From: Desulfobulbaceae bacterium S3730MH12
Lineage (GTDB): Bacteria > Desulfobacterota > Desulfobulbia > Desulfobulbales > Desulfocapsaceae
Direction of reading: 5' to 3'
Assembly (NCBI GenBank): GCA_001750925.1
Contig: MAXH01000042.1
Coordinates: 1 to 32,000, forward strand
Length of the DNA stretch: 32,000 bases
Part shown: in pieces, positions 6,809 through 25,162 of the stretch
Layout of the letters: the number at the start of each line of letters is the position of its first letter
Position numbering within the stretch: the stretch's first letter is position 1
Notes under the pieces: model-generated
Databases searched by the model: none
Told to the model about the DNA's origin: nothing
The model's input: only the letters and a program-made list of their open reading frames with translations
Program-made: the position numbers and the translations under genes

Positions 6809-7047
6809 GAATCCGGATCCCGATTATATCCCTTCCATAACAGCAAAGCGGTGTCATCGTAGTGAACGCATTTCATGGGTGTTAAATCAGCAAAAATGGC
6901 AGAATTACGACAACACGACAGCTACCATCCGCTGAAAATTGTACTGACGTTAAATCACGTTGCATATAGTATAATGATCGCATAAATTTGTCATCTGATT
7001 TGGTGGCGATTTTCCTAATAATAGAGTATCAGTGTCGATATATTATC
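6809..7047. promoter_or_regulatory. divergent control region between the two operons of the lipid cluster
   Basis: 239 nt non-coding gap between head-to-head genes. Plus strand: perfect TATAAT at 6970..6975 with CTGACG at 6945..6950 (19-nt spacer), and an alternative TTGCAT 6960..6965 with TAAATT 6983..6988. Minus strand: perfect TATAAT at 6828..6823 with no convincing -35. Confidence 0.5.
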
Positions 7048-7482
7048 ATGAGTAGAATTCCATTTTCCGATCTTACACTTGACGACCTGCTTCCCCATCG
7101 CGAAAACATGATGCTGGTGAAAAAGGTTTTCGAAGTTGACAGCAAACATGCCCGCACACTCTGTCGCCCGGAGAAGTCCTGGCCCATGAGTGATGATAAG
7201 GGAGTCCATCCCCTGATTTTAATAGAGCTGGCGGCACAGACTGCGGGAGTATGCAACGGCTGGGACAGAATACAGACCCAGGGACTTGACTCAGATCAGA
7301 TGGGCTGGCTGGTGGGCATTAAAAAAGCTGAATTTTTTATTGACTGGTTGCCTCTGGGCAGCGACATTATCACCAATGCGGAAAACAGATATAATTTTGA
7401 AAATCTGCGGGTGGTATTCTGTGAACAGACCATGGACAATAAACTTATAGGCAGGATCACACTGCAGCTCTTCCAGGCATAG
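7048..7482 (+). CDS. hot-dog fold 3-hydroxyacyl-ACP dehydratase (APE-type, LLPHR-motif form)
   Basis: N-terminal DDLLPHRENMMLVKKV matches the LPHRxPxLLV motif of FabZ/APE dehydratases. Followed by VHPLILIELAAQTAG (central-helix His/Glu region). The ATG at 7048 was chosen; the track ORF starts at TTG 6988 with an implausible leader. Confidence 0.8.
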   Translation: MSRIPFSDLTLDDLLPHRENMMLVKKVFEVDSKHARTLCRPEKSWPMSDDKGVHPLILIELAAQTAGVCNGWDRIQTQGLDSDQMGWLVGIKKAEFFIDWLPLGSDIITNAENRYNFENLRVVFCEQTMDNKLIGRITLQLFQA

Positions 7483-8828: not shown

Positions 8829-9481
8829 TCTTCTGCCTGTCTACCGTGATGATCCTGCTTACCAGCTGTGCTGTAGAAAAACAGAGGCACCTTCCGAATT
8901 TATCACCCGCTCCGGCCTTGGAGGAAACGTCCTGCTCTGCAGCTGTCTTCCCCCAGGGTAAATGGCAGTTTATCCACGCCATCGACTTCAGCATGAAAAA
9001 CGGTGCCGGCACCGCTGTTATCGGAGTTACCAGCCTTAGCAGAAATAGGATTGATTGTGCCCTGATCACCATTGAAGGACTCACACTTTTTGAGGCAGCC
9101 TACGAAGAGGAAAAGGGGCTGGAAATCCGGCGGGCAGTTCCCCCATTCGACAAGCCCCTGTTTGCAGAAGGGTTGATACGAGATCTGCGGACAATTTTTC
9201 AACCTCCGACCGGCGGTATGCAGACAGGGCAAATCCCCGGAGCAATAACTGTATGCCGGTATGCTGATAACATGGGCAGGGTTATAGATGTCCTCCCTGA
9301 AGCGGATGACTGCTGGCAGATTAATATTTACAATTCAGAGATGACCCTGGATCGTTCCATTACAGGAAGATCATGCAGAAACAATGGCTCTGCTCAGGTC
9401 CCTGAATATCTTGAGCTTAACAGTTACGGCCAAACCGGCTATACTCTTAAAATGACACTGATACGCGCTGATAAACTTTGA
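8816..9481 (+). CDS. putative lipoprotein of unknown function
   Basis: Signal peptide with lipobox MKLHIFCLSTVMILLTSC (L-T-S-C). No catalytic motifs recognised. Translationally coupled on both sides (ATGA, TGATG). It may correspond to the small lipoprotein (DUF-type) seen in APE clusters, which is unverified. Confidence 0.6.
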   Translation: MKLHIFCLSTVMILLTSCAVEKQRHLPNLSPAPALEETSCSAAVFPQGKWQFIHAIDFSMKNGAGTAVIGVTSLSRNRIDCALITIEGLTLFEAAYEEEKGLEIRRAVPPFDKPLFAEGLIRDLRTIFQPPTGGMQTGQIPGAITVCRYADNMGRVIDVLPEADDCWQINIYNSEMTLDRSITGRSCRNNGSAQVPEYLELNSYGQTGYTLKMTLIRADKL

Positions 9482-10758
9482 TGAAATTTAAACTTATCTA
9501 CCCTAAATGGGCCAAGCTGAGCAGACAGACAGAATTTCATCTGCCCCCCCACGGCCCCGTGGTTTTTGCCGCGACCCTTCCTGATAATATTGATATCGAT
9601 TTTATTGATGAAAATCTGGAAACCATCGATTTTGACGACGATGTTGACTTCGTAGGCATCTCAATGATGCTCACAGTCCAGGTAAAAAGGGGCTGGGAAA
9701 TTGCTGATAACTACCGCAAGAGAGGAATTAAGGTTATTTTTGGCGGCATTGCAACCATGCTCCATGCTGAAGAAACCATGGAACATGCAGATTCAGTTTT
9801 TCTCGGTGAAGCGGAAGGGAGAATGGCGCAGGTTCTCTCTGATTTCAACCATGACAGGTTGCAGCCATGCTATGATTTTTTAAGCGAAAGACCCGATATT
9901 GATCTGGTAGGTGCGGCGAGAAGAGATATCCTCAACCGCAAACTCTACAACTTCAAAGGCGTGCAGATGGTAGACCTGGTGCATGCTTCAAGAGGCTGCC
10001 GTTTTAACTGTTACCCCTGTGCCGTCTCCTACCTAGGAGGAAGGGTCTTTCGACCACGCCCCATCGATAAGGCGGTGGCCGAGATCGCCGGTATTGACAA
10101 TAACCGGCTCTTTATTGTCGATAACTCCCTGGCCCAGGATACCAAGTGGGAAATGGATCTGTTCAGGGAGATGATTCCGCTGAAAAAGAACTGGTGCTCT
10201 CATCCCATTGAGGATAACCCTGAGGTTCTTGATCTGGCAGCACAGGCGGGAGCCTGGTATGTGTACCAGGCAGTCTTTGATACCTCTGACTATATCAAAG
10301 AGCGGATCAAACGCTATCATGATCATGGAATCGGCGTGGAGGGAACAATCCTGCTCGGGCTCGACAGCCATACTGAAGATTCCATTAAACGGTTGATTGA
10401 TTTCCTTCTTGAGATTGAACTGGATCTTGCCGAATTTACCGTACTGACACCTTTTCCTCATACCAAAGCCTATGATGAACTGAACAAAAATAATCGTATC
10501 CTGTCCCGGGACTGGGATGATTTTTCAGCTGACCGGGTAGTATTTCAGCCAAAAAACATGAGCTCGCAGAAATTGCAGGAACTGCTCGATTACGCCTGGA
10601 ATACCTTTTATCAAGATGAACCCCAGCGAATAAAAATGGCCCGACTATTTAAGCAGGTTGTTAAAAAAGAGATGGAAAATAATACCTTCAGGCCAAGGGA
10701 CAGGAGCCTGACCGGACAATCTTTTGGCAAACCGGTAAACCGAGAAAATGCGCGCTGA
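9481..10758 (+). CDS. B12-binding-domain radical SAM enzyme (class B rSAM)
   Basis: N-terminal B12-domain-like region (FVGISMMLTVQ...IKVIFGGIATM). Followed by ASRGCRFNCYPCAV (CX3CX2C). The ATG at 9481 overlaps the preceding stop (TGATG); the track start at 9478 is a TTG. Confidence 0.85.
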   Translation: MKFKLIYPKWAKLSRQTEFHLPPHGPVVFAATLPDNIDIDFIDENLETIDFDDDVDFVGISMMLTVQVKRGWEIADNYRKRGIKVIFGGIATMLHAEETMEHADSVFLGEAEGRMAQVLSDFNHDRLQPCYDFLSERPDIDLVGAARRDILNRKLYNFKGVQMVDLVHASRGCRFNCYPCAVSYLGGRVFRPRPIDKAVAEIAGIDNNRLFIVDNSLAQDTKWEMDLFREMIPLKKNWCSHPIEDNPEVLDLAAQAGAWYVYQAVFDTSDYIKERIKRYHDHGIGVEGTILLGLDSHTEDSIKRLIDFLLEIELDLAEFTVLTPFPHTKAYDELNKNNRILSRDWDDFSADRVVFQPKNMSSQKLQELLDYAWNTFYQDEPQRIKMARLFKQVVKKEMENNTFRPRDRSLTGQSFGKPVNRENAR

Positions 10759-12109
10759 ATCTCCACCCGATATCAAAAAGAATATAGATGAACTGCTGCG
10801 GGGAGCATTATTTCCCGATAAAGAGTTTATCTGTTTCGGCTCTACTTTTGGTGATGTGTATAAAATGGCATCCCGGTTGCGTGTGGCGTTAGCAAATCCC
10901 CGGTATCAGGGGACAGCTGTCTGCCTTGCCACAGACAGCAAAGCAGTTATGGCTGCGGCTCTGCTGGCATCACTGGGGGGAGGGCCAGCCCTTCTTCTAC
11001 CCTATGCGTTTTCTGCCGGAGCCCTCGACAAAATGCACCAGGAAACCGGTTTTACAACTGCTGTTTCCGATCTGGATAGAGAATTCCCCAAAGGGGTTGA
11101 AGTTATCTGCCCACAATTTACAAAGACCGCTGAAGCTCCAATTAATACTCACACCTTGCCCCGCTCGGAACTACTGAAAATTTTCACCGGTGGTTCCACA
11201 GGTTCACCGCAGATCTGGCTCAAAACTTCGGAAAATATTTTCAGTGAAGGATTTTTTCTGGCAAATCGTTATAAAATAACTGAACAAGACTGCATTCTGG
11301 CCACCATCCCGCCTTACCATATCTACGGTCTGCTTTTCTCTATTGTCCTGCCTCTGGTCTCATCGGCATCTGTTGTAGAAGAAGTACCATCCTTTCCCGG
11401 TGAAATTACCCGTGCCGCCCAAGACAATAAGGTCACAATCCTGGCCAGTGTCCCCGCCCATTATCGGGCCTTACGTGATAAAAAAATATCGTTGAGACTG
11501 GCCGTTTCCTCGGCCGGCATGCTTGATGCGAAAGACAATGAAACATTCAGCCAATTAAACAGAGCCGGAATAGAGGAGATATATGGATCCACCGAAACCG
11601 GAGGAATAGCGACTAGAAACAGGTTCCTCGGTGAAAAGTATTTCACTCCTTTTACAACAATTGAATGGAAAATTATAAACCATCGGCTTGCTGTTCGCTC
11701 ACCCTATATCTCACCCGACCTGCCTGTTGATACCGAAGGGTTCTTCACCGCCAATGACCGGGTAGAGGCTGAAGAAACAGACAAATTTTCCCTGCAGGGG
11801 AGAATCGACGCTGTGACAAAAGTTGGAGGTAAACGGGTTGATCTTGAGGAAATCAGTACCCTTATTAAAGGTGAATCAGATGTTGATGACTGTGTAGCTC
11901 TGGCCCTTCCTGAAAAGGGAGGTCGTGAACACCGGATTGGCGTTTTGATCCAGGGGCACAGAGTGGAACCGAAAATGATTAAAAAATCACTGGTCAATGC
12001 CCTTGAGCCATACGCCATGCCCCGTCGCATTAAAGTAGTTGATCGAATTCCCGTAAATAAAAACGGTAAATATGACTGGCGTACTATTGCGCGGCTTCTT
12101 GAAAAATGA
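10748..12109 (+). CDS. AMP-dependent synthetase/ligase (ANL superfamily; acyl/aryl-ACP or -CoA ligase)
   Basis: ANL motifs: FTGGSTGSPQ (degenerate A3 P-loop), YGSTETGG (A5), GRIDAVTKVGGKRVDLEEI (A8), and the C-terminal NKNGKYDW lysine (A10). At 453 aa it is short, like APE-cluster ligases. Confidence 0.85.
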   Translation: MRAESPPDIKKNIDELLRGALFPDKEFICFGSTFGDVYKMASRLRVALANPRYQGTAVCLATDSKAVMAAALLASLGGGPALLLPYAFSAGALDKMHQETGFTTAVSDLDREFPKGVEVICPQFTKTAEAPINTHTLPRSELLKIFTGGSTGSPQIWLKTSENIFSEGFFLANRYKITEQDCILATIPPYHIYGLLFSIVLPLVSSASVVEEVPSFPGEITRAAQDNKVTILASVPAHYRALRDKKISLRLAVSSAGMLDAKDNETFSQLNRAGIEEIYGSTETGGIATRNRFLGEKYFTPFTTIEWKIINHRLAVRSPYISPDLPVDTEGFFTANDRVEAEETDKFSLQGRIDAVTKVGGKRVDLEEISTLIKGESDVDDCVALALPEKGGREHRIGVLIQGHRVEPKMIKKSLVNALEPYAMPRRIKVVDRIPVNKNGKYDWRTIARLLEK

Positions 12110-13824
12110 GTGCTATCGAAAAAAGTTTTGCTGCCGGCTATGCATATCTTTCTGCCTGGACAGATCTTCTGGATCAGATCAATGTCTTTCCTGTTACTGA
12201 TGGAGATACCGGAACCAATCTGCGTATCAGCCTGGCTCCGCTTCGCAGCAGTGACGGAAACGTCAGAAACACCCGCACCCTGCTGGCTCACTGTGCAACG
12301 GGAAACTCCGGTAATATTGCTGCGGCTTTTTTTCGGGAATTTTGTCAGGCTAAAAGCTCCTGTGAGCTTGCAGAAACAACCGCGGCGGGCAGAGAAATGG
12401 CCTGGCAGGCAATTGCCAGTCCCTGTGCCGGAACCATGCTCACGGTATTTGACAAACTGGCTTCGACACTGGCATCTGTGACCGAACCGGAAAACCTTTA
12501 TTCCTCCCTCAACCCGGAATTACAGAAGGCAGTCCATACCACATCAGAGATCCTGCCTGAGCTCAAGGAGGCCGGCGTGGTGGATTCCGGTGCCCTGGCC
12601 ATGTACCTTTATTTTGACGGCTTCTTCAGAAATCTCACCGGACAAAAAGATGACCCGGTCTCCATCATTGACATTTTTGCAGGCAAACTTGCTGTCAGCA
12701 GCTCTTTCCAACCGGAAAACACCAACGACTACTGTGTAGATGTTACCCTTCAGGTAGAAGATAAAGAAACAACAACCCGAAACTCCATTGCAGAGCTTGG
12801 GGAAAGTGCGGTGATATTGCAGGATAAATCAACCATGAAGGTTCACCTTCATACCCCTGACCCGCGCCGCCTGCGAAACCAGCTCGATTCGTTTGGTGAT
12901 GTCAGTGACTGGTCCCATGAAAAAATTAATCAGCAAACTGGAAAACAACAGGTAGAGGCCGGTAAAGAAGCAGTTCTCCATATTGTGACAGATGCCGCCG
13001 GCTCCATAACCAGAAAAATGGCCAGAGACCATGGCATTACCCTGCTTGACAGCCACATCATAGCAGGAGACAACTCAAGGCCGGAAAGTCTGTACAGCCC
13101 TGATCAAATCTACCCTTTGATGCGCAAAGGCATAAAAATTACCACCGCGCAATCCTCCACCCTCGAACGGCATCAGCACTATCAAAGTATTTGCCGGCAG
13201 TTCGGTCGTTCACTCTACCTTTGCGTTGGTTCTGCTTTTACCGGTAACTATGCTGCCGCTGCTGCCTGGAAGAAAGAATATGATCCCCAGAATTTTTTTA
13301 CCGTATTAGACACAGGTGCAGCTTCCGGACGACTTGCACTTATAGCCCTGCTCACCGCCGGACATTCAAAATTTGTCAACTCCTCCGAGGAGGTCATCGA
13401 GTTTGCCCGAAAAAGTATTACAGAATGTAAAGAGTATGTCTTCATAGACCAACTGAAATATCTCGTTGCCGGCGGTAGAATAACAAGAACCAGAGGTTTT
13501 TTCGGAAATCTGCTCAACATAAAACCTGTTATCAGCCCAACCGAAAATGAAGTGCGCAAAATTGCTGTGGTCCATAGTAGAAATGGACAACTTGAGTTTG
13601 CCCTGAAAAAGATCAACAACTCTTTTCAGAAATCTACCGCCTCCCCCCTGATCATGCTCCAATACACAGATAATGAGAAATGGGTGGGTGACACTGTGCA
13701 GTCGCAGATAAGAGCCCTGCTGCCGAAAGCTGAAATACTACTCACGCCTCTCTCCCTCACCTCCGGTGTTCATATGGGCCCTGGAACATGGTCCATAGCC
13801 TTCACCCGCCTGCACTTGACATGA
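12106..13824 (+). CDS. Dak2 (FakA/DhaL-like kinase domain) - DegV (FakB-like fatty-acid-binding domain) fusion protein
   Basis: N-terminus: INVFPVTDGDTGTNL and CATGNSGNI match the Dak2/FakA motifs DGDTGTN and GNSG. The C-terminal ~280 aa are DegV-like: HIVTDAAGS, TTAQSS, GSAFTGNY, VLDTGAASG, LVAGGRITRTRGFFGNLLNIKPVIS and GVHMGPGTWSIAF. Confidence 0.8.
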   Translation: MSAIEKSFAAGYAYLSAWTDLLDQINVFPVTDGDTGTNLRISLAPLRSSDGNVRNTRTLLAHCATGNSGNIAAAFFREFCQAKSSCELAETTAAGREMAWQAIASPCAGTMLTVFDKLASTLASVTEPENLYSSLNPELQKAVHTTSEILPELKEAGVVDSGALAMYLYFDGFFRNLTGQKDDPVSIIDIFAGKLAVSSSFQPENTNDYCVDVTLQVEDKETTTRNSIAELGESAVILQDKSTMKVHLHTPDPRRLRNQLDSFGDVSDWSHEKINQQTGKQQVEAGKEAVLHIVTDAAGSITRKMARDHGITLLDSHIIAGDNSRPESLYSPDQIYPLMRKGIKITTAQSSTLERHQHYQSICRQFGRSLYLCVGSAFTGNYAAAAAWKKEYDPQNFFTVLDTGAASGRLALIALLTAGHSKFVNSSEEVIEFARKSITECKEYVFIDQLKYLVAGGRITRTRGFFGNLLNIKPVISPTENEVRKIAVVHSRNGQLEFALKKINNSFQKSTASPLIMLQYTDNEKWVGDTVQSQIRALLPKAEILLTPLSLTSGVHMGPGTWSIAFTRLHLT

Positions 13825-14525
13825 AACCAGCTGTCATAATTCCTGTTTATAATCACGACCGTCAAGTCGTCGAAGTCATCCGGCAAACCTGTAAACTGGG
13901 TCTGCCGATCTTTGTGATTGATGATGGTTCAACAGACTCCACCTCCACCAATATTGATACGCTGAAAGGAATCACTGTCCTTCACCACCCCGTTAACAAG
14001 GGCAAAGGAGCCGCCATTCTCACCGGTCTTGCCGCCGCCGGAGAACAGAATTGTGACTATGCCATCACCCTGGATGGGGACGGCCAGCACAATCCTGAAA
14101 ATGCTGCAGAATTACTCCGCGCAGTCGATAACGGCGAGCGATGCATTGTCATCGGCAGCCGACAGGGCATGAAGGATGGAAAAAACGTGCCATGGACCAG
14201 CAAATTTGGCCGCAAATTTTCCAACTTCTGGGTGTGGGCAGCCGGTGGGCCTAAAGTGCAGGATTCCCAGTCCGGTTTCAGGCTCTATCCTGTCCCTGAA
14301 ACACTCCAGTTGGGCGTAAAAGCCAGGCGGTACCAGTTTGAGGTAGAGGTACTGGTCAAGGCCAGACAGCAGGGTATTAAAATCAGGGAAGCACCGGTGC
14401 AGGTCGTCTACCAGGCAAAAGGGAAACGAATCAGCCATTTCCGGCCCTGGCTTGATTTCTGGCGTAATTCGACCACCTTCAGCAGGCTGATATTTGCCCG
14501 CTTTTTCAGGATATTTCGGCCATGA
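13821..14525 (+). CDS. family 2 glycosyltransferase
   Basis: KPAVIIPVYNH, FVIDDGSTDST and TLDGDGQH (DxD-type) motifs. The ATG at 13821 overlaps the upstream stop (ATGA). The track start at 13788 lies inside the preceding gene. Confidence 0.85.
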   Translation: MKPAVIIPVYNHDRQVVEVIRQTCKLGLPIFVIDDGSTDSTSTNIDTLKGITVLHHPVNKGKGAAILTGLAAAGEQNCDYAITLDGDGQHNPENAAELLRAVDNGERCIVIGSRQGMKDGKNVPWTSKFGRKFSNFWVWAAGGPKVQDSQSGFRLYPVPETLQLGVKARRYQFEVEVLVKARQQGIKIREAPVQVVYQAKGKRISHFRPWLDFWRNSTTFSRLIFARFFRIFRP

Positions 14526-15391
14526 ATAATTTCTGGTATAAACTGCTTACCCGGACTGCCAACTTGTGTGGATCGTGGTTATTTATCATCGTATCCCGGA
14601 CTGTTGCCGCCGGCTACTTTCTACTTTCCAGGCGGGTGAGAGAAAGCAGCCGCTTCTATGCCGCCCTCTATCCCGGCAGAGGAAAACTCTACCATCTATG
14701 GTGCAGCTTTTACCAGTATCAGAATTTCACAACCATTCACCTTGACAGATTTTTGGCGAATCAAGCTAAATCAGTAACCTTTACATCCCAGGGTTGGGAA
14801 AAACTGGAATCGGTCATTGGATCCCGGGGTGGTATTCTTCTTATGTCACATCTTGGCAACTGGGAAATTGCCGCAACACTGCTCAAGCGGCAGAAAAACA
14901 ACCTGCGTCTGCTCCTCTATATGGGTATAAAGGAAAAAGAAGGGATAGAAAAGGCCCAAAAAGATACCCTCCGCAGATCCGGAGTAACCATCATTGGAGT
15001 AGAAAAAGAAGACAGTTCACCATTTTCCGCGTTGGAAGGTATTCGCTTTCTGCAGTCGGGAGGTCTGGTATCCATGGCAGGCGATATCGTCTGGCGCAAA
15101 GATCAACGAAAGGTATGTGTTTCTTTTCTGGGCCATGATGCCTTCCTGCCGGAAGCACCTTTTGTTTTTGCTCTGGTATCAGGTGCCCCGCTTTTTGTCT
15201 TCTTTGCATTCCGCACCGGCAAAAACTGCTACCACTTCACCCTGTCAGATCCAATCCCGGTTCGAACCGTATCCCGTCAGGATAGAGCCGAAGCCATCTC
15301 ACAGGCTGCTCAGCAGTACGCTGATCTGCTGGAAGAATCACTCCGGAAACATCCATTTGAATGGTATCATTTTGATCGATTTATTCATTGA
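14522..15391 (+). CDS. LpxL/HtrB-family lysophospholipid (lipid A-type) acyltransferase
   Basis: 289 aa with an N-terminal membrane anchor. The LLMSHLGNWE motif is the HxxxxD/E acyltransferase box as found in the lauroyl/myristoyl acyltransferase family. ATGA overlap with the GT2 gene. Confidence 0.75.
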   Translation: MNNFWYKLLTRTANLCGSWLFIIVSRTVAAGYFLLSRRVRESSRFYAALYPGRGKLYHLWCSFYQYQNFTTIHLDRFLANQAKSVTFTSQGWEKLESVIGSRGGILLMSHLGNWEIAATLLKRQKNNLRLLLYMGIKEKEGIEKAQKDTLRRSGVTIIGVEKEDSSPFSALEGIRFLQSGGLVSMAGDIVWRKDQRKVCVSFLGHDAFLPEAPFVFALVSGAPLFVFFAFRTGKNCYHFTLSDPIPVRTVSRQDRAEAISQAAQQYADLLEESLRKHPFEWYHFDRFIH

Positions 15392-15750: not shown

Positions 15751-16998
15751 ATGAAACGACGCGTTGTTATCACCGCCTGCTCTGCCATTACTCCTATCGG
15801 GTATGACAAAAGGGATATAATAGAAAGCCTCAGGCAGGGCAAATCCGGGGTAAAACCACTACGGGATGACGGATTGCTGACAAAACATATCCACTCCCGT
15901 GTATTCGGCACTGTCGACTACCCCATCGAGTACGGCTTCAAACGGCAGTACCGAAAGACCATGGGGCCCGTTGCCTTTTACGCCTGTCAGGTTGCAAAAG
16001 ATGTTTTGCAAAGCTCTGGCCTGAGTCGGGACTATATCACCTCCGGCCGTCTTGGTGTTGCCTTTGGCTCAACCCACGGCAGCCCTACCGTCCAGCGCGA
16101 TATCTACAAAACATTTTTCAACGATCTTGATTCAAAATTTTCCTCTATCGGAGCAGTTGATTATCTCCGCTCCATGGTTCATACGACAGCGGTAAACATC
16201 ACCCGAATGTTCGGCATCACCGGGCGGGTCATCGCTTCATCCACCGCCTGTACAACCAGCAGCCAGTCCATCGGGTTTGGTTATGAAACGATCAAGTATG
16301 GCATGCAGGATGCTATGATCTGTGGTGGGGCGGATGAGTATGATACTACCACTGTTGCAGTTTTTGATAACCTGCTTGCCTGTTCTGTAGATTATAATCA
16401 TAAACCGCACTGTACTCCCCGTCCATTTGATGCCGGACGAGACGGGTTGGTTGTAGGAGAGGGAGGCGGCGCTGTACTTCTCGAAGAGTATGAGTCCGCC
16501 AAAAGACGTGGCGCCAACATCCTTGGAGAAATCATTGGTTTTGGTTGCAATAACAACGGCGGCGACATGATCCTGCCGAATCTTGATGGAATTACCGCAA
16601 CCTTGCGTCTGGCACTCGAATCTGCCGAGATATCTCCCGACGACGTCGATTTTATCAGCGCCCATGCCACTGCGACAAAGATGGGTGATGTCATTGAATC
16701 TCAGGCCATAGCAGCGGTATATGGAAACGGACCACTGGTTACCGGCCTGAAAAGTTATATGGGCCATACCATGGGGACCTGTGGCGTCATTGAGTTAATT
16801 TTAACGTTGTATATGATGGAGCAGGGATTTATTGCCCCAACCCTCAATCTTGACAATGTTGATGAACGGTGCAGCATGCTGCGTCATACCCGTCAACTGA
16901 CTGATACCGCCATCAGGATAGCAGCCATTCAAAACTTTGCTTTTGGCGGAGTAAATACCTGCCTGCTTATTAAAAATGGTAGTGAAGCAGATTCGTAA
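15751..16998 (+). CDS. beta-ketoacyl-ACP synthase (FabB/FabF-like KS)
   Basis: Catalytic triad motifs STACTTSS (Cys), SAHATATKMGD (His) and GHTMGTCG (His), plus FAFGGVNTCLLI at the C-terminus. 415 aa. Confidence 0.9.
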   Translation: MKRRVVITACSAITPIGYDKRDIIESLRQGKSGVKPLRDDGLLTKHIHSRVFGTVDYPIEYGFKRQYRKTMGPVAFYACQVAKDVLQSSGLSRDYITSGRLGVAFGSTHGSPTVQRDIYKTFFNDLDSKFSSIGAVDYLRSMVHTTAVNITRMFGITGRVIASSTACTTSSQSIGFGYETIKYGMQDAMICGGADEYDTTTVAVFDNLLACSVDYNHKPHCTPRPFDAGRDGLVVGEGGGAVLLEEYESAKRRGANILGEIIGFGCNNNGGDMILPNLDGITATLRLALESAEISPDDVDFISAHATATKMGDVIESQAIAAVYGNGPLVTGLKSYMGHTMGTCGVIELILTLYMMEQGFIAPTLNLDNVDERCSMLRHTRQLTDTAIRIAAIQNFAFGGVNTCLLIKNGSEADS

Positions 16999-17764
16999 CG
17001 GTTCTTTTGGTCATCTGATTGATCGACTTATTGATTGCACTGTAACCATTGCATGCTGGAGCTGGTTTATATTTGGATTTCTGCTGTTTTTTTCCTGGCC
17101 CTATATTGCATTTTCGCTGTTTTCAAAAAATCCTGAAATTCATTTCCAGAAATTGAACAGCCTCTTTTACCGATTCTTTTTCCGTATCCTTAAGATAACA
17201 GCCCCCCGTCAAAAAATTGAAGTAGACAAACGGGTAGCAGCAATCAAATCTTCAGTTATTGTCTGTAACCACCTCTCCTATCTTGACCCGCTGCTATTGA
17301 TTGCTCTCTTCCCAAAACAAAAAACAATCGTCAAAACACGTTTTTTCGGGGCACCTGTTTTCGGCTGGATTATCACAAAATCCGGTTATCTCCCTGCGAC
17401 CTGCGAAGGACGGTTTTCCAGGATGATGATTGAGCAGATGGAAACGATGGCTACCTATTTGAAGGCAGGCGGTAATCTCTTTGTCTTCCCTGAAGGAACT
17501 CGGGTTCGGAATGGAAAAATAGGCGAACTTCATATGGGCGCCTTGAAAATTGCACGAATGCATCAAGCCCCTGTCCATGTTCTGCAGATTCGTAATAGCG
17601 ACAAACTCTTCACTCCCGGCAGGTTTCTTTTTAATACCAGGATAAGAAATACAATCAGCGTTAAAAGTATTGATTGCATCGAACCGGACTATGAGAATGA
17701 ACCACCATCTACTGCTCAACTTGCCCGGCGGGTTCGTCAATCATTTTACGAGAAGCAGATATGA
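16976..17764 (+). CDS. 1-acyl-sn-glycerol-3-phosphate acyltransferase family protein (PlsC-like)
   Basis: N-terminal TM segment. VCNHLSYLDP is the HX4D box and VFPEGTR is the second acyltransferase box. Overlaps the KS gene by 23 nt. Confidence 0.85.
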   Translation: MVVKQIRNGSFGHLIDRLIDCTVTIACWSWFIFGFLLFFSWPYIAFSLFSKNPEIHFQKLNSLFYRFFFRILKITAPRQKIEVDKRVAAIKSSVIVCNHLSYLDPLLLIALFPKQKTIVKTRFFGAPVFGWIITKSGYLPATCEGRFSRMMIEQMETMATYLKAGGNLFVFPEGTRVRNGKIGELHMGALKIARMHQAPVHVLQIRNSDKLFTPGRFLFNTRIRNTISVKSIDCIEPDYENEPPSTAQLARRVRQSFYEKQI

Positions 17765-19251
17765 AAGTAATTCTAATATCTATGCCTGATGTGGTACCTG
17801 TCATCATTCACGAAGCGGCATTCCACCTGTCAAACCATGGAATAGCCAGTGTTGGAGCAAATATCGACATTGAACATGATGTTTTTCTGATTGATCTGAT
17901 TCGAAAGCGTCGGTCAATTAGAAAATATATTGCCAGAGCAGTGAGGAAGATCAAACCTGATCTTATTGGTCTTTCCGCCATGACCTGGCAGTATAACACC
18001 TGTATTAAGATAACCCGCCTCATCAGGGAACTCCTTCCCGAAGTAAAAATAGTTATCGGGGGATACCACACCACCCTGATGTTTGAGGAGATAGCGACAT
18101 CCCATGAGGCAAAATTCATCGACTTTATGATCAGGGGCGAAGGTGAAGAGCCATGCCGCCTGCTGGTTAATGCACTTGCCGGCCAGGGAAACCCGGCTGC
18201 AATCCCCTCGCTGTCGTATAAAAAAAATGGCGTTTTTATACACAATCCCCGGAGTGAAAACCTCGATCTCAGCGAATTGAAACTGCCAATCCGGGATAAG
18301 CGAAGATTGACCTGGGGATACCATATGCTTCACTCCAAAATCGAACTGATAGAAACATCCCGCGGCTGCACGCGATCCTGCAACTTCTGTTCGATGAAAC
18401 ACATGTATGGCCGTACCTTCAGGACGTTTCCTCTCATCCGGGTGCTAACAGATATTGACGATATTTATTTTAAGCGAAAGACACGGTATATTTTTATCAC
18501 AGATGATAATATGGTGCTTAACCCAGCCAGGGTCATAGAACTGTGTGATGCCATAATTGCCAGGAATTATAAAGATCTTCATCTTTTTGTCCAGGCTGAC
18601 TGCGTATCGATGGCAAAAAACGAGGCGATGGTCGCAAAAATGGCAGAAGCCGGTTTTCGTTCCGTTTTCCTCGGTATTGAAAACGTATCAAAAAAGAACC
18701 TGGCCGCTGCAGGTAAAGGCGATATTATTGCATCTTCCAAACAAGCTGTTCAAAACTGTCATAAGTACGGAATGATGGTCATCGGTGGCCTTATATTCGG
18801 CTTCCCCGAGGATGACGAAGAATCGATCAGAGATAATTATGAATTCTTCAAATCTATTAAAGCCGACGCAGCGTACTGCCAGGTGTTGACCCCCTATCCC
18901 AAAACCGGGATACGAGAACATCTTCTACAGCAGGAATTAATTACCAACCGGACTGATTTTACAAAATACAACGGTCTGTGGGCCAATGTACGAACAAATT
19001 ATTTAGCTACAGAACAGCTGCAATTCCAATTCTGGTACCAGCGTCAAGTTGTGCTGGGCTGGTGGAATCCACCCGCCGAGGTCAGAAGTCAAGGATGGGC
19101 ATGGATATTCGTCTGGCGGTTTATGTTCAAACCTTTTTTGACACTCTACTATAGAAGGGTTATGAAGAAGTACGGCTGGGAAGGACGCTACAGGAAAGAA
19201 GTAACACGGTGGGAAAACATGAACAGGTTTCAGGATCTTGAGGATTACTAA
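17761..19251 (+). CDS. B12-binding-domain radical SAM enzyme (class B rSAM)
   Basis: N-terminal MKVILISMP...LIGLSAMTWQ...VKIVIGGYHTT resembles a cobalamin-binding domain. Followed by TSRGCTRSCNFCSM (CX3CX2C). 496 aa. ATGA overlap with the upstream gene. Confidence 0.85.
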   Translation: MKVILISMPDVVPVIIHEAAFHLSNHGIASVGANIDIEHDVFLIDLIRKRRSIRKYIARAVRKIKPDLIGLSAMTWQYNTCIKITRLIRELLPEVKIVIGGYHTTLMFEEIATSHEAKFIDFMIRGEGEEPCRLLVNALAGQGNPAAIPSLSYKKNGVFIHNPRSENLDLSELKLPIRDKRRLTWGYHMLHSKIELIETSRGCTRSCNFCSMKHMYGRTFRTFPLIRVLTDIDDIYFKRKTRYIFITDDNMVLNPARVIELCDAIIARNYKDLHLFVQADCVSMAKNEAMVAKMAEAGFRSVFLGIENVSKKNLAAAGKGDIIASSKQAVQNCHKYGMMVIGGLIFGFPEDDEESIRDNYEFFKSIKADAAYCQVLTPYPKTGIREHLLQQELITNRTDFTKYNGLWANVRTNYLATEQLQFQFWYQRQVVLGWWNPPAEVRSQGWAWIFVWRFMFKPFLTLYYRRVMKKYGWEGRYRKEVTRWENMNRFQDLEDY

Positions 19252-20352: not shown

Positions 20353-22851
20353 CTACTCCACCGGGATTCCCCAGATCTCTTCAGAATACTGTTTAATGGT
20401 ACGATCGGTGGAGAATTTTCCCATCCGTGAGACATTGAGTATCGCCATTCTGGTCCAGCTGTCCTGGTCGAGGAACATCTCGCTCACCCGGTTCTGGCAT
20501 GTAATATACGATTCAAAATCAACCATATGAAGATATGGATCATGTTTATCCATTAAGCTGTCCACAAGGGGTTGGAAAAGTGATTTATCTCCATCACTGA
20601 AAGATCCGTTGCTGAGTGCTTCAATTACATCTTTGATCTTGTCATTTTGCTCACATACCTGAAGAGGTGTCCTGCTGACATTTTTCCTTTCAAATTCCGC
20701 TTCATCTGCGGTCAAACCAAAAATAAAGATGTTCCCCTCCCCTACCTCCTCACGGATCTCGATATTTGCACCATCAAGGGTGCCGATGGTCAATGCCCCG
20801 TTAAGTGAAAACTTCATATTTCCCGTACCTGAAGCTTCCGTACCGGCAGTGGATATCTGTTCCGACAGATCTGCTGCAGGCATAATAATCTCCGCCTGGG
20901 ATACATTATAATTAGGTAGAAAAACCACCTTCAGTTTCTCTTTCACTCTGGGATCATTATTGACAACCTCAGAAATTGAGGTGATAAGCTTGATTATCAA
21001 TTTTGCCCGCCAATAGGAAGGTGCCGCCTTGCCGGCAAATACTGCAACCCTTGGAGATGTATTTTCCGCCTCACCCCGTATTATCCGGTGGTAGAAATGA
21101 ATAAGATGAAGTGCATTGAGCAGCTGGCGTTTATATTCGTGTATCCGCTTCACCTGAATATCGAACATCGACCCAGGGTTAACTGTCACCCCGACTGTCT
21201 TTTGGATGTAGGCAGCCAGTGCGACCTTATTATCAAATTTTATCTGACACCATTTCTTACAAAATTTGGGGTCATCCACCAGGGATTCAAGACCACGCAA
21301 TTGATCAAGATCAGTAATCCATCCAAATCCGAGATGGTTGCTGATCAGGTCAGCCAGTTCAGGATTCACATCGAGCAGCCAGCGCCTGGGGGTAATACCA
21401 TTTGTTTTTGAATTGAATCTCCCCGGGAAAAAATTATGGAAATCAGGAAAAATTCTCTCTTTGAGGAGCTGTGAATGCAGTTCCGCCACACCATTGACAG
21501 AGTGGCTGCCGATAATCGCCAGGTGAGCCATCCTCACCATCTTGACCGGCCCCTCTTCAATAATGGAAAGCTCCCGTATTTTTCTTTCATTGCCGGGATA
21601 TTTCTCGGTAAGTTCGACGAGAAAGCGACGATTGATCTCATAGATGATCTGCAGATGACGGGGCAGCACCTTTCCCATCATATCCACCCGCCATCGTTCC
21701 AGAGCCTCAGGCATAAGGGTATGATTGGTATAGCCAAAAGTATTCACACATATATTCCACGACTCCTCCCAGCCAAGCCCTTCAATGTCAAGGAGGAGCC
21801 GCATGAGTTCCGGGATGGCAATGGCAGGGTGGGTGTCATTGAGTTGTACAGCCACCATGTCAGTAAATTTATCGAAAGTCTCATGCTTCTTTTTGTACCG
21901 CCTCATAATATCCTGGAATGTTGCGGCAACAAAAAAGTACTGCTGTTTCAATCGCAATTCCTGCCCGGCATAGTTATGATCCGGAGGATAAAGCACCTTG
22001 GAGATTGTCTCCGAACTCACTTTAGATTGAACCGCACCTATATAATCCCCCCTGCTGAAATCCTTCAAATCAAGTTCTCTTGATGATTGAGCCGACCAGA
22101 GGCGCATATTTATCACATGATCATTTCTGTATCCCGGTACCAGGATATCAGAGGCCCGCGCTTTCACATCCCTGGTATTCACCCATTTGGCCCTGTAATT
22201 TCCATCACCATTCTGGTAACTTGTCACGTCACCAAAGAATTGTACATTGAAGATCGGCTGCGAACGATCAAATTCCCATGGAGTACCGTCAACCAGCCAG
22301 TTGTCAGGCCCTTCGACCTGATACCCGTCAATCAGCTGCTGAAAAAAGAGACCATACTCATAGCGTATGCCATACCCGTAGGCAGGGATTTTGAGAGTTG
22401 CAATAGAATCCATAAAACAGGCAGCCAGACGTCCAAGACCTCCGTTGCCAAGGGCTGCGTCCTCCTCCTGATCCCGTATCTCCGACATATCAAATCCAAG
22501 ATCCTCAACAGCTTGTTTTGCGGCTCTCAGGATACCAAGATTGGTCATACTGTTGCCAAGACTTCGCCCAATTAAAAATTCAAGAGAAAGATAGTAGACC
22601 CTCTTTTGTTCCTTTGCATAAAACGTTTTCTGGGTCGAGATCCATTTTTCCACCATAATATCCCGCATGGTATAGGCGAGCGCCTTATACACATCTCTCG
22701 CACCGGATCGCTCCGGGTCGCGGCCCTGAAAGCTCATCAGATGATGAATAATATTTTCCCGCAATGCCTTTACAGTTGTGGGAAAATGGACTTCGGAGGA
22801 GAATTTCTTCTTCTGCCCGGTCTGCGACTTAACTGTTTCCATAACCTTCAT
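20353..22851 (-). CDS. glgP: glycogen/maltodextrin phosphorylase
   Basis: About 830 aa with the PLP-lysine signature EASGTGNMKFSLNGALTIGTLDGANIEI and typical GT35 length. I chose the ATG at 22851 (MKVMETVKS...), preceded by GGAGGG at 22866..22861 with a 9-nt spacer. The track start at 22917 has no RBS. Confidence 0.93.
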   Translation of the reverse strand: MKVMETVKSQTGQKKKFSSEVHFPTTVKALRENIIHHLMSFQGRDPERSGARDVYKALAYTMRDIMVEKWISTQKTFYAKEQKRVYYLSLEFLIGRSLGNSMTNLGILRAAKQAVEDLGFDMSEIRDQEEDAALGNGGLGRLAACFMDSIATLKIPAYGYGIRYEYGLFFQQLIDGYQVEGPDNWLVDGTPWEFDRSQPIFNVQFFGDVTSYQNGDGNYRAKWVNTRDVKARASDILVPGYRNDHVINMRLWSAQSSRELDLKDFSRGDYIGAVQSKVSSETISKVLYPPDHNYAGQELRLKQQYFFVAATFQDIMRRYKKKHETFDKFTDMVAVQLNDTHPAIAIPELMRLLLDIEGLGWEESWNICVNTFGYTNHTLMPEALERWRVDMMGKVLPRHLQIIYEINRRFLVELTEKYPGNERKIRELSIIEEGPVKMVRMAHLAIIGSHSVNGVAELHSQLLKERIFPDFHNFFPGRFNSKTNGITPRRWLLDVNPELADLISNHLGFGWITDLDQLRGLESLVDDPKFCKKWCQIKFDNKVALAAYIQKTVGVTVNPGSMFDIQVKRIHEYKRQLLNALHLIHFYHRIIRGEAENTSPRVAVFAGKAAPSYWRAKLIIKLITSISEVVNNDPRVKEKLKVVFLPNYNVSQAEIIMPAADLSEQISTAGTEASGTGNMKFSLNGALTIGTLDGANIEIREEVGEGNIFIFGLTADEAEFERKNVSRTPLQVCEQNDKIKDVIEALSNGSFSDGDKSLFQPLVDSLMDKHDPYLHMVDFESYITCQNRVSEMFLDQDSWTRMAILNVSRMGKFSTDRTIKQYSEEIWGIPVE

Positions 22852-23127
22852 ATAGTAACCCCCTCCAGGGGAACAAATTTTATTGCTGCTTTTTTTCGGA
22901 TAAGAACTGCACGCCATCTCTGGACAAATTGTACCGGCAGATATATCTATTTTAGAACCGGCTGTTGATGACGGTGTAAAAACTCTTCATCCGGAGTCTC
23001 GCAAGCTCGCTTACCTGCTTCATTGCTGCAATATAACAACGAAGCAGATATTGGCTACTGTCTCTTTCAGTAAAGAGACATAATAGCTCCACAGGCATCC
23101 GGTTTTTGGGTAAATTTATGATTTTCA

Positions 23128-23156
23128 TTGAAGCCAACACCACATTGTAGTATATC
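23128..23156 (+). promoter_or_regulatory. candidate sigma70-type promoter upstream of the TPR gene (and possibly metY)
   Basis: TTGAAG (23128..23133), a 17-nt spacer, then TATATC (23151..23156). By-eye match only. Confidence 0.25.
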
Positions 23157-23228
23157 GGCTTCAGGCACTAGTTCACTCTTTTTAAAAAATCGTTCTATCG
23201 TCCCCAGCATTAAAATCAGAGGAGATCC

Positions 23229-23834
23229 ATGGCTGCAGATAAATCAAAACAGAAAAACCGCAATCCTTTAGTAATCTATTTCATGATTTTCATCCTTGGC
23301 TTTTTAACAGGGGTTGGATTTACGGTATTTAAAACAGGTGGAACCGGTTCGGATACTGCCGTAGTCAGCAGTCAACAAACCGATAATCACAATGAAGAAA
23401 CCCATCAAGCCATCCTCAACCTCGAAGCTGAAGTTACCGCCGACCCTGATAATTTCCAGGCATGGAGACAGCTGGGAAACCTCTACTATGATCATAATGA
23501 CCCGGAAAAAGCGATCGGTGCCTATACAAAGTCACTGGAATTACATTCAGGTGATGCCAATCTACTTACTGATCTGGGTGTAATGTACCGCCGAACAAAA
23601 CAGTCTGAAAAGGCTATAGAATTTTTTGACAAAGCGATACAAATGGCCCCGAATCATGAACCGGCCAGATTTAATAAAGCGATTGTTTATATGTATGATC
23701 TTAACAACCCCGGCGAGGCAATTGCAAGCTTGGAGGAGCTTCTCCGGATCAATCCACAGGCCCGGGCCGCCAATGGCGAACTCATTAGTGACTTCGTTAA
23801 AAGTATTAAATCGGAGACCGCAGACAAAAAGTAA
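23229..23834 (+). CDS. membrane-anchored TPR-repeat protein
   Basis: GGAG RBS. One N-terminal TM helix (LVIYFMIFILGFLTGVGFTVF). Then canonical TPR units (WRQLGNLYYDHNDPEKAIGAYTKSLELHSGDANLLTDLGVMYRRTKQSEKAIEFFDKAIQMAPNH). Confidence 0.8.
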   Translation: MAADKSKQKNRNPLVIYFMIFILGFLTGVGFTVFKTGGTGSDTAVVSSQQTDNHNEETHQAILNLEAEVTADPDNFQAWRQLGNLYYDHNDPEKAIGAYTKSLELHSGDANLLTDLGVMYRRTKQSEKAIEFFDKAIQMAPNHEPARFNKAIVYMYDLNNPGEAIASLEELLRINPQARAANGELISDFVKSIKSETADKK

Positions 23835-23871
23835 AATAATTCTACTCTGGATCCAGGAAAGGAAATACTCT

Positions 23872-25149
23872 ATGAAATTTGAAACAAAAGCACTGCACGC
23901 AGGCCAGACCATCGATCAGGATACACTCTCAAGAGCTGTTCCCATATACCGGACAAGTGGCTACATGTTTAAAAACACTGAACATGCGGCGAATCTTTTT
24001 GCCTTAAAAGAGCTTGGCAATATCTACACCAGAATCGGCAATCCAACCCAGGATATCCTGGAGCAGAGGATGGCACAACTTGAAGGCGGCGCAGCAGCCC
24101 TTGCCCTCTCGTCTGGGACTTCCGCGATATTTTATTCCATCATAAATATCTGTGGTCAGGGAGATGAGGTTGTCTCGGCAAACAACCTCTATGGCGGCAC
24201 ATTTTCCCAGTTCGACACGATTTTACCCCAGTTTGGTATAAAGGTACGAATGGTGGATCCTTCTGATCTTGGAAACTTTGAAACAGCAATTACTGAAAAC
24301 ACCAGGGCCCTTTACTGTGAAACTCTCGGTAACCCGGCCCTCAATATGACTGACCTTGAAGGACTGGCAAAAATAGCCCAAAACCATAACCTGCCCCTTA
24401 TCGTCGACTCCACCTTTACACCGCCCTGCATCCTGCGACCAATTGAATATGGCGCTGATATTGTCATTCATTCCCTGACCAAGTGGATTGGTGGACACGG
24501 TACCACCATTGGCGGAATTGTGATCGACAGTGGTAAATTTGACTGGACCGACACCAAGTTTACCCTCTACAACGAACCCGATGAATCATATCATGGCCTC
24601 CGCTATGCCCATGATCTTGGCGACCTGAACCCTGTTGCCTTTGCCCTCCGCATGCGGCTTGTACCCCTCAGAAATCTTGGCGCGTGCATCTCTCCGGACA
24701 ACTGCTGGGCAATCCTGCAGGGAATAGAAACATTGAGTCTGAGAATGGAGCGTCACTGTGAAAATGGTGCTGCAGTAGCCAGCTTTCTCGACAAACACCC
24801 CGGAGTAGACTGGGTGCACTATCCAGGTCTCCCCGGATCTCCCGGTCATGAAAATGCAGTTAAATATCTTGGCGACAGTTTTGGCGGAATGATTGCTTTT
24901 GCCATAAAAGGAGGCCTTGAAGCTGGAAGAAAATTCATAGACTCCCTGGAACTCGTGTCTCATCTTGCAAATGTCGGTGATGCGAAATCTCTTGCCATCC
25001 ACCCTGCCTCCACCACCCACTCGCAGTTATCACCCGAACAGCTGCAGGCTGGCGGGATCGATGAAGGCATGGTTCGACTTTCTATCGGTATTGAGCATAT
25101 CGACGATATAACAGCAGATATCGGCCAGGCAATAGAAAAAACACAATAG
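23872..25149 (+). CDS. metY: O-acetylhomoserine sulfhydrylase (aminocarboxypropyltransferase), PLP-dependent
   Basis: MKFETKALHAGQ N-terminus and PLP-lysine motif HSLTKWIGGHG. About 425 aa. The ATG at 23872 is preceded by AGGAAAGGAAA. The track ORF (from 23626) has an N-terminal extension overlapping the TPR gene. Confidence 0.9.
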   Translation: MKFETKALHAGQTIDQDTLSRAVPIYRTSGYMFKNTEHAANLFALKELGNIYTRIGNPTQDILEQRMAQLEGGAAALALSSGTSAIFYSIINICGQGDEVVSANNLYGGTFSQFDTILPQFGIKVRMVDPSDLGNFETAITENTRALYCETLGNPALNMTDLEGLAKIAQNHNLPLIVDSTFTPPCILRPIEYGADIVIHSLTKWIGGHGTTIGGIVIDSGKFDWTDTKFTLYNEPDESYHGLRYAHDLGDLNPVAFALRMRLVPLRNLGACISPDNCWAILQGIETLSLRMERHCENGAAVASFLDKHPGVDWVHYPGLPGSPGHENAVKYLGDSFGGMIAFAIKGGLEAGRKFIDSLELVSHLANVGDAKSLAIHPASTTHSQLSPEQLQAGGIDEGMVRLSIGIEHIDDITADIGQAIEKTQ

Positions 25150-25162
25150 TTTAACAAAACAG

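Follow-up and report, generated by a model that had tools for sequence, protein, structure and literature searches.

How does a fatty acid kinase, which published accounts describe as a pair of proteins that Gram-positive bacteria use to scavenge host or exogenous fatty acids, come to be encoded as a single polypeptide within a lipid gene cluster of a Gram-negative sulfate reducer, and what could it be doing there? A 2023 review still presents FakAB as a Gram-positive strategy (PMC10146087). The question is raised by a gene at positions 12106-13824 of the window, i.e. the whole stretch of 32,000 nucleotides of contig MAXH01000042.1 analyzed here, which belongs to the 3.1-Mb, 82% complete metagenome-assembled genome (MAG) of Desulfobulbaceae bacterium S3730MH12 (GCA_001750925.1). 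The encoded protein, hereafter the fusion, consists of the N-terminal and middle domains of FakA (FakA_N and FakA_M) with a complete FakB substituted for the FakA C-terminal domain (FakA_C), an architecture that is common in the databases and defines a large, multi-phylum family. The reading that we favor, with moderate confidence, is that the fusion is a self-contained, single-chain carboxylate kinase dedicated to the lipid cluster and making an acyl-phosphate, most likely for PlsY.

The open reading frame (ORF) starts with the ATG at 12106, ends with the TGA at 13822-13824 and encodes 572 amino acids with no internal stops, exactly where an earlier note on this DNA had placed it. That note also described the gene as translationally coupled to an AMP-ligase gene upstream and a GT2 glycosyltransferase gene downstream, and both junctions are indeed four-nucleotide ATGA overlaps, one shared by the ligase stop and the kinase start (12106-12109) and the other by the kinase stop and the GT2 start (13821-13824). 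The GT2 gene has a second possible in-frame start, the ATG at 13788, which would extend its overlap with the kinase gene to 37 nucleotides; its Pfam match begins 15 codons past this ATG and 4 codons past the ATG at 13821. All the motifs quoted earlier were recovered, namely, DGDTGTN (within residues 25-38), GNSGNI (66-71), HIVTDAAGS (292-300), TTAQSS (346-351), GGRITRTRG (456-464) and HMGPGTW (556-562).

The assignment of domains in this protein is far beyond chance. In the comparison with profile hidden Markov models, both domains named by the earlier note exceed the curated Pfam cut-offs, Dak2 with an E-value of 1.7e-16 (61 bits against a cut-off of 27) and DegV with 3.1e-40 (138.7 bits against 27), and the NCBIfam DegV model TIGR00762 agrees (score of 144.2, above the cut-off of 99.7). 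The proposed covalent fusion of FakA with a FakB-type DegV domain is thus borne out, with the addition that the middle domain of FakA, which had been overlooked, is also retained (FakA-like_M; E-value of 5.8e-12, 45.7 bits against 24.9). The FakB-docking domain FakA-like_C (PF13684) had no match in the fusion in the Pfam search; the C-terminus is instead a full DegV domain. The fusion falls below the cut-offs of the whole-protein FakA/YloV models (TIGR03599, 161.6 against 396.1; NF038248, FakA_VfrB, 105.1 against 975), which cover just its N-terminal ~310 residues, and the matches to FakA structures in the PDB end at approximately residue 277. The colinear arrangement of Dak2, FakA_M and DegV in one chain is that of the ~560-620 amino acid proteins of the fused family, and the covalent linkage of DegV to the kinase sets the protein apart from the free-standing FakB proteins of ~280 amino acids.

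The predicted structure leads to the same assignment. The AlphaFold2 (AF2) model of the fusion, built on an alignment of 67 full-length fusions that are 22-72% identical to the window protein, has a mean pLDDT (predicted local distance difference test) of 93.3 and a pTM (predicted template modeling score) of 0.92. In Foldseek comparisons, the C-terminal half of the model matched whole, fatty-acid-loaded DegV/FakB chains of 268-289 residues with template modeling (TM) scores of 0.80-0.89, so the tunnel-forming inserts that are absent from FakA_C are present in the fusion; the N-terminal part matched FakA_N with a TM score of 0.78. The full model aligned colinearly with FakA (7W7H), with the domains arranged differently and a root-mean-square deviation of ~27 Å.

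The residue roles established for FakA and FakB (PMC9136124, PMC10848957) allow the active sites of the fusion to be traced. The putative ATP-Mg site comprises N26, D32, D34, T35, N38, N67 and D160, of which all but N38 align, in the order given, with N32, D38, D40, T41, N82 and D185, the Mg and phosphate ligands of the Staphylococcus aureus FakA. In the middle domain, a dimerization and zinc or 'catalytic triad' domain in FakA (PMC9136124, PMC10848957), C210, H247 and H249 align with C240, H282 and H284 of S. aureus and with C244, H289 and H291 of Streptococcus suis. These nine residues (N26, D32, D34, T35, N67, D160, C210, H247 and H249) are invariant in all 67 aligned fusions. The DegV half retains the T-x-Q, S-x-x-T/S-G, GGR and H-x-G-P-G motifs when aligned with 1PZX, 3PL5, 2DT8 and others, and the motif alignment to these three structures places the carboxylate site at T347, S376, R458 and H556; of these, T347 and R458 do not vary among the 67 sequences, while H556 occurs in 66 of them and S376 in 51. 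As judged from these alignments, the kinase half is not degenerate. A non-catalytic N-terminal Dak2 domain, the possibility that the earlier note had singled out as fatal to its proposal, was checked and is ruled out by the aligned and invariant ATP/Mg and Cys-His-His residues.

The fused form is by no means confined to this locus. An exhaustive HMMER search of 1.84 billion sequence representatives (clustered at 50% identity) retrieved 242 clusters at E<1e-30; approximately 100 of the best 150 representatives are full-length, single-stretch fusions, down to 25% identity, and all eight sampled full-length representatives carry Dak2, FakA_M and DegV according to Pfam. Overall, the full-length single-stretch matches to the window protein span 22-94% identity. 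The named relatives of one distant member come from Nitrospinae, Marinimicrobia, Aminicenantes, Thermoanaerobaculia, Gemmatimonadota and Calditrichaeota, and the family is automatically annotated as 'DegV family EDD domain-containing protein', 'DegV family protein' or 'DAK2 domain fusion protein YloV'. A literature search for a Dak2-DegV or FakA-FakB fusion found no paper that describes or assays one, and searches on fatty acid kinase in Desulfobulbaceae and on DegV in work on aryl polyenes and ladderanes found nothing relevant. The breadth of this family undermines one argument of the earlier note, that the fusion itself is a sign of an unusual acid: the architecture occurs across many phyla, and some members are found next to plsY or outside any lipid cluster. 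The same note had held that its proposal would fall if the fusion were a widespread housekeeping gene with no linkage to such clusters; the fusion is indeed widespread, but the second part does not apply, since the clade of the window protein is tied to the cluster.

The evidence of this tie comes from the distribution of the gene. The fusion was detected in 52 of the 201 sampled Desulfobulbales genomes (46 of the 156 high-quality ones) and matched in 36 of the 401 sampled genomes of the phylum; its close relatives, 57-94% identical, belong to Desulfobulbales, among them Desulfopila and Desulforhopalus. Phylogenetic profiling, which had been proposed for the fusion and the radical S-adenosylmethionine (rSAM) genes of the cluster, revealed clear co-occurrence: an orthologue, with at least 77% identity, of the B12-binding rSAM gene at 9478-10758 is present in 50 of the 52 genomes that encode the fusion and in none of the 149 that do not, and in 45 genomes the two genes share a contig, mostly at a distance of one gene (~1.4 kb). 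The gene order is conserved as well. In Desulfobulbales loci, the divergent ketosynthase/chain-length factor (KS-CLF) and acyl carrier protein (ACP) genes and the genes for a hotdog protein, a ketoreductase (KR) and the B12-rSAM protein lie upstream of the fusion; the AMP-ligase gene precedes it in all 18 named loci; and, of the 17 loci that extend beyond the fusion, 16 continue with GT2 and an LpxL-like gene, the remaining one (L014) being without GT2. Outside this order, the fusion lies in a cluster of this type in all 16 phylum-level loci, with 40-51% identity, with GT2 downstream in 8 of these loci and in L030; the metagenomic loci L024, L030 and L031 agree with this context. The gene directly upstream in 10 of the 16 phylum-level loci, and also in L024, L031 and L050, encodes a 4HBT thioesterase, preceded by an aromatic ammonia-lyase gene in 6 of these 10 loci and in L024; in L042, the ammonia-lyase gene itself is directly upstream of the fusion. 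In four relatives, namely, three of the 16 phylum-level loci (L044, L045 and L047) and the metagenomic L024, plsY lies inside the cluster.

In a quickly built maximum-likelihood tree with 66 sequences and one canonical FakA as the root, there is a general clade and a second clade with a support of 100 in the Shimodaira-Hasegawa-like approximate likelihood ratio test (SH-aLRT), which splits into a group with plsY operons and its sister, the cluster group (33 rows, support of 100). In the former, the three examined operons of distant members (27-34% identity) all combine plsY with the fused fak gene through a 4-nucleotide overlap. Two members of the general clade show no lipid context. On the Aminicenantes contig L052 (6001-9005), plsY comes next after the fused kinase gene, and then, encoded on the other strand, an acylphosphatase (PF00708); an acyl-phosphate-hydrolyzing enzyme here adjoins the presumed maker and the presumed user of acyl-phosphate. 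On the Nitrospinae-type contig L051 (4576-7770), a B12-rSAM gene lies 30 nucleotides upstream of a general-clade fused kinase gene; its product is just 24-27% identical to the rSAM proteins of the window. This is a third, independent kinase-rSAM adjacency. Within the cluster group, the Desulfobulbales with the AMP-ligase form a subclade with a support of 100 that is nested among thioesterase-type members, so the ligase adjacency is derived. The coupling of kinase and ligase genes that the earlier note had emphasized is therefore real, but it is a derived arrangement of Desulfobulbales and not a general feature, most relatives having the 4HBT thioesterase in that position; a 'hand-over' step between the kinase and the ligase finds no support in this evidence. 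We also considered, and rejected, the possibility that the ligase is an obligatory partner of the kinase that replaces the thioesterase, because the thioesterase-type genomes hold an orthologue of the ligase, 42-45% identical, elsewhere. Because the clade of the window protein is strictly tied to the cluster, cluster-dedicated activation of a carboxylate via an acyl-phosphate, one suggestion of the earlier note, emerges as the best reading.

Under this reading, the C-terminal DegV domain would take up a free lipid acid with the tail buried and the carboxylate exposed, as DegV/FakB proteins do (PMC9136124), and the Dak2 domain would hold ATP with two Mg ions and transfer the gamma-phosphate to the carboxylate, yielding the acyl-phosphate. 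The middle domain probably dimerizes the enzyme, and phosphotransfer may cross protomers, as in FakA-FakB. The acyl-phosphate would most likely be consumed by PlsY, which is encoded elsewhere in the genome, to produce 1-acyl-glycerol-3-phosphate, with conversion to acyl-ACP by PlsX as a less likely sink; the PlsC-like and LpxL-like acyltransferases of the cluster, together with the GT2 enzyme, could then elaborate the lysophosphatidate. In particular, it is possible that the PlsC-type homologue uses lysophosphatidate formed downstream of the acyl-phosphate. For most relatives, the 4HBT thioesterase encoded upstream would supply the free acid, so that thioesterase and kinase would jointly bypass PlsX, with an unusual acyl chain as the cargo. 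In favor of an acyl-phosphate product, we note the plsY-fak operons of the sister clade, plsY next to the Aminicenantes gene, plsY in the cluster relatives, and the presence of both plsY and plsX in the genome of the window. Nevertheless, PlsY as the consumer, the identity of the acid and the choice between cis and trans phosphotransfer can be proposed only conditionally.

Several observations weigh against this interpretation or weaken it. That the fused members make acyl-phosphate is itself deduced from their homology and genomic surroundings. Of the zinc ligands of the S. suis enzyme, the fourth, H226, falls opposite a gap in the alignment with the fusion. In the window, we found no cluster-type 4HBT thioesterase, no ammonia-lyase and no plsY, and a search of the 82% complete genome with a single query, which does not imply absence, found no orthologue of the cluster thioesterase; plsY and plsX are on other contigs, and with plsY outside the cluster, both the consumer of the acyl-phosphate and the source of the free acid are indirect here. 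The ANL ligase encoded directly upstream also uses free acids and so could compete for, or share, the substrate of the kinase. Finally, 45 of the 201 Desulfobulbales genomes contain a sister cluster with the order rSAM-rSAM-GT2-LpxL-ACP-KS (L027, L028 and L029, from G021, G017 and G009, respectively), the B12-rSAM protein of which is 56-62% identical to the product of 9478-10758 and which lacks both the fusion and an adjacent AMP-ligase gene. Given these related clusters without the fusion, the kinase step is accessory rather than core, an add-on found in one variant of the cluster and not a housekeeping function.

The alternatives have to be weighed against the same body of evidence. One of them turns on the proximity of kinase and rSAM genes and holds that the DegV domain is a carrier platform that presents the free lipid acid to a B12-rSAM enzyme, with phosphorylation merely the exit step, so that the fusion would serve mainly to present its substrate and not to activate it. 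In favor of this view is a set of 16 Desulfobacter proteins (P0397-P0412) of 1102-1125 amino acids with the domain order Dak2-M-DegV-B12-rSAM, in which the rSAM half is a full-length, 59% identical orthologue of the window gene at 17761-19251; in D. hydrogenophilus (JAAGRP010000023.1; L050, 10001-13342), such a gene lies between an upstream 4HBT thioesterase gene and downstream genes for an ACP and an ApeI-like dehydratase. Moreover, a B12-rSAM gene is found beside the fused kinase in three clades, one gene upstream in Desulfobulbales, immediately downstream in L024 and immediately upstream, with the distant rSAM protein, in a member from Nitrospinae. However, DegV/FakB proteins bury the acyl tail (PMC9136124), leaving little of the chain within reach of the rSAM enzyme; gene fusion may instead reflect co-regulation or successive steps of a pathway; and the invariant kinase residues indicate that phosphorylation is under selection regardless. 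A structure prediction for the complex of the DegV domain (residues 286-572) with the B12-rSAM protein of 17761-19251 gave a score of 0.01, which we count neither for nor against binding. On balance, we regard the carrier platform as unlikely. The broader proposition that the fused kinases in general are protein carriers of free lipid acids, with B12-dependent rSAM enzymes modifying the DegV-held acid and Dak2 then phosphorylating it for PlsY, is slightly more doubtful still; if true, it would amount to a third carrier chemistry for lipid tailoring, besides ACP-bound and phospholipid-bound chains, and would explain both the Desulfobacter proteins and the three-clade adjacency.

It is also rather improbable that the fusion has a general housekeeping role in phosphorylating ordinary fatty acids that were scavenged or recycled, as a Gram-negative counterpart of FakAB that resides in the cluster by chance. 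The fusion is the sole Dak2 match and the sole DegV match in its genome, plsX and plsY are located there away from the cluster, and distant fused relatives occur without a lipid cluster or simply beside plsY, all of which would suit such a role; against it stand the patchy distribution of the gene within the order and the phylum, its near-perfect co-occurrence with the cluster-specific rSAM orthologue, the 4-nucleotide overlaps with its neighbors, and the location of all examined clade members in the cluster or beside its thioesterase gene. Another candidate substrate, an aromatic or short starter acid of a polyene pathway (of the coumarate or hydroxybenzoate type) activated as acyl-phosphate, is brought to mind by the ammonia-lyase, which makes a free aryl acid and is encoded upstream in 7 of the 16 phylum-level loci and in L024 and directly upstream in L042, and by the similarity of the neighboring ligase to 4-coumarate-CoA ligase. 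We consider this quite improbable, given that the structural match of the DegV half extends over entire long-chain fatty-acid-binding proteins, tunnel-forming elements included, that the lyase-type genomes hold an ANL ligase orthologue elsewhere that could activate the starter, and that the Desulfobulbales clusters keep the fusion without a lyase. The least probable of these possibilities, to which we attach very little credence, is a non-catalytic lipid sensor or chaperone in which Dak2 is a nucleotide switch and DegV shuttles lipid to LolA-like export proteins. Some DegV proteins do act beyond Fak (e.g. PMC10138225), and LolA-like and lipoprotein genes, identified with Pfam, are present in the cluster; the strict conservation, in 67 sequences, of the Mg and phosphate ligands, the Cys-His-His residues and the phosphotransfer arginine of FakB, along with the repeated linkage of the wider family to plsY, speaks against it.

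The features of the window that bear on this assessment are collected in the table.

Features of the fused kinase gene and its cluster neighbors in the window (coordinates are window positions)
Feature	Coordinates	Strand	Basis and remarks
Single-chain fatty-acid kinase gene, Dak2 - FakA middle domain - DegV	12106..13824	+	572 aa; ORF/translation, Pfam, NCBIfam, AF2 model, fold matches
Dak2 / FakA_N nucleotide-binding domain (residues 29-173)	12190..12624	+	Pfam PF02734; alignment to 7RM7/8VIP, 7W7H_A
FakA-like middle domain (residues 208-279), C210/H247/H249	12727..12942	+	Pfam PF21645; alignment to S. suis FakA C244/H289/H291
DegV / FakB-type fatty-acid-binding domain (residues 292-567)	12979..13806	+	Pfam PF02645, TIGR00762; alignments to 1PZX, 3PL5, 2DT8; Foldseek
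164-aa ORF, probable hotdog dehydratase (candidate)	6988-7482		Weak ApeP-like dehydratase (E 0.002) and FabZ (E 9e-6, below cut-off) matches
B12-binding radical-SAM gene	9478..10758	+	Pfam; high-identity orthologue co-occurs with the fusion
AMP-binding (ANL) ligase	10748..12109	+	Pfam; best NCBIfam match 4-coumarate-CoA ligase, below cut-off
GT2 glycosyltransferase	13821..14525 (alternative start 13788)	+	Pfam; overlaps the fusion stop
LpxL/HtrB-family (lipid A-type) acyltransferase homologue	14522..15391	+	Pfam PF03279; conserved beside GT2
PlsC-type 1-acylglycerol-3-phosphate acyltransferase homologue	16976..17764	+	Pfam PF01553; TIGR00530 domain match
B12-binding radical-SAM gene	17761..19251	+	Pfam; orthologue fused to the kinase C-terminus in Desulfobacter

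The short ORF at 6988-7482 had no Pfam match at default thresholds; from the matches listed, it is probably the hotdog dehydratase of the cluster. The cluster ends at 20294. Beyond it, the region 20353-26320 encodes a glycogen phosphorylase on the minus strand, a TPR protein and a pair consisting of an O-acetylhomoserine sulfhydrylase-like protein and an alpha-beta-hydrolase, which look unrelated to the lipid genes.

Comparison with known systems puts these findings in perspective. The chemical precedent is the two-component fatty acid kinase, FakA plus FakB, of Firmicutes such as S. aureus and S. suis (PDB 7RM7, 6W6B, 7W7H, 4X9X and 5WOO; PMC9136124, PMC10848957), with which the fusion has in common the Dak2 ATP/Mg ligands, the Cys/His/His residues of the middle domain and the Thr/Ser/His/Arg carboxylate site of DegV. 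By analogy, the same reaction would be expected, i.e. the conversion of a fatty acid and ATP to acyl-phosphate, and relatives of the fusion are linked to PlsY. The differences are that one polypeptide takes the place of two, that a complete DegV domain replaces the PF13684 domain, that the fourth zinc ligand is not aligned, and that the host is a Gram-negative sulfate reducer with the gene in a specialized lipid cluster rather than in a system for bulk scavenging. Because the replaced domain is the one that docks FakB, the fusion has no exchangeable set of FakB isoforms. In FakA, the docking domain itself has a DegV-like fold that lacks the tunnel (PMC9136124), and in the fused protein P0262 and many others of the general clade, the DegV domain also weakly matches FakA-like_C (PF13684). 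These weak matches fit the possibility that FakA had a fused ancestor, the DegV domain of which gave rise to the C-terminal domain of FakA, so that the fused form would provide a plausible picture of the origin of FakA, with the C-terminal domain of the latter as a tunnel-less DegV relic.

Compared with the other members of the fused family in the databases, to which it belongs by both architecture and conserved residues, the window protein stands out by the cluster linkage of its clade, apart from the plsY-operon clade and the general clade of Nitrospinae, Aminicenantes, Marinimicrobia and Gemmatimonadota. A one-protein form of fatty acid kinase is thus widespread in Gram-negative-type phyla, and one well-supported branch of it, whose nearest relatives show translational coupling to plsY, has become part of a specialized, unsolved lipid pathway, that of the Desulfobacterota kin of the ladderane and aryl-polyene clusters. 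The 'ladderane-type' clusters for extended type II fatty acid synthesis (FASII) were described in Kuenenia stuttgartiensis and Desulfotalea psychrophila (PMC2649909). With these and with the aryl-polyene/flexirubin clusters, the cluster in the window shares KS paralogues, ACPs, KR and a hotdog dehydratase (with weak ApeP/FabZ matches), B12-rSAM and SPASM rSAM proteins, a flavoenzyme resembling amine oxidases and phytoene desaturases, a LolA-like protein, GT2, and LpxL-like and PlsC-like acyltransferases; the 2009 paper on the ladderane-type clusters (PMC2649909) names no kinase or DegV gene.

The logic of the thioesterase-type relatives has a parallel in TesE of Enterococcus faecalis and TesS of Streptococcus pneumoniae, which cleave acyl-ACP to the free acid that Fak then re-activates to acyl-phosphate (PMC12288450). 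The cluster relatives share this logic in that a thioesterase gene is located directly upstream of the fusion; their thioesterase, however, is of the 4HBT hotdog type and is part of a polyene/ladderane-type cluster, whereas the Desulfobulbales variant has, instead of the thioesterase, the ANL ligase in that position. If acyl-phosphate is made, these clusters would attach their unusual chain, or the anchor lipid, by the PlsY route, via a thioesterase-kinase bypass of PlsX, which would offer a testable entry point to the structure of the cluster product; furthermore, with both halves in one gene, the fused enzyme would lend itself to the convenient synthesis of acyl-phosphates in vitro.

The covalent joining of a kinase domain with its substrate-binding partner is itself not without parallel. 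In the single-chain dihydroxyacetone kinase of the Citrobacter type, a fusion of DhaK with DhaL that is discussed in the FakA studies (PMC9136124, PMC10848957), a substrate domain of the EDD fold and a Dak2 domain are likewise contained in one chain. There, however, the order is reversed, K followed by L, compared with L-M-DegV in the present case; the middle domain is absent; and the substrate is the hydroxyl group of a small ketose rather than the carboxylate of a lipid.

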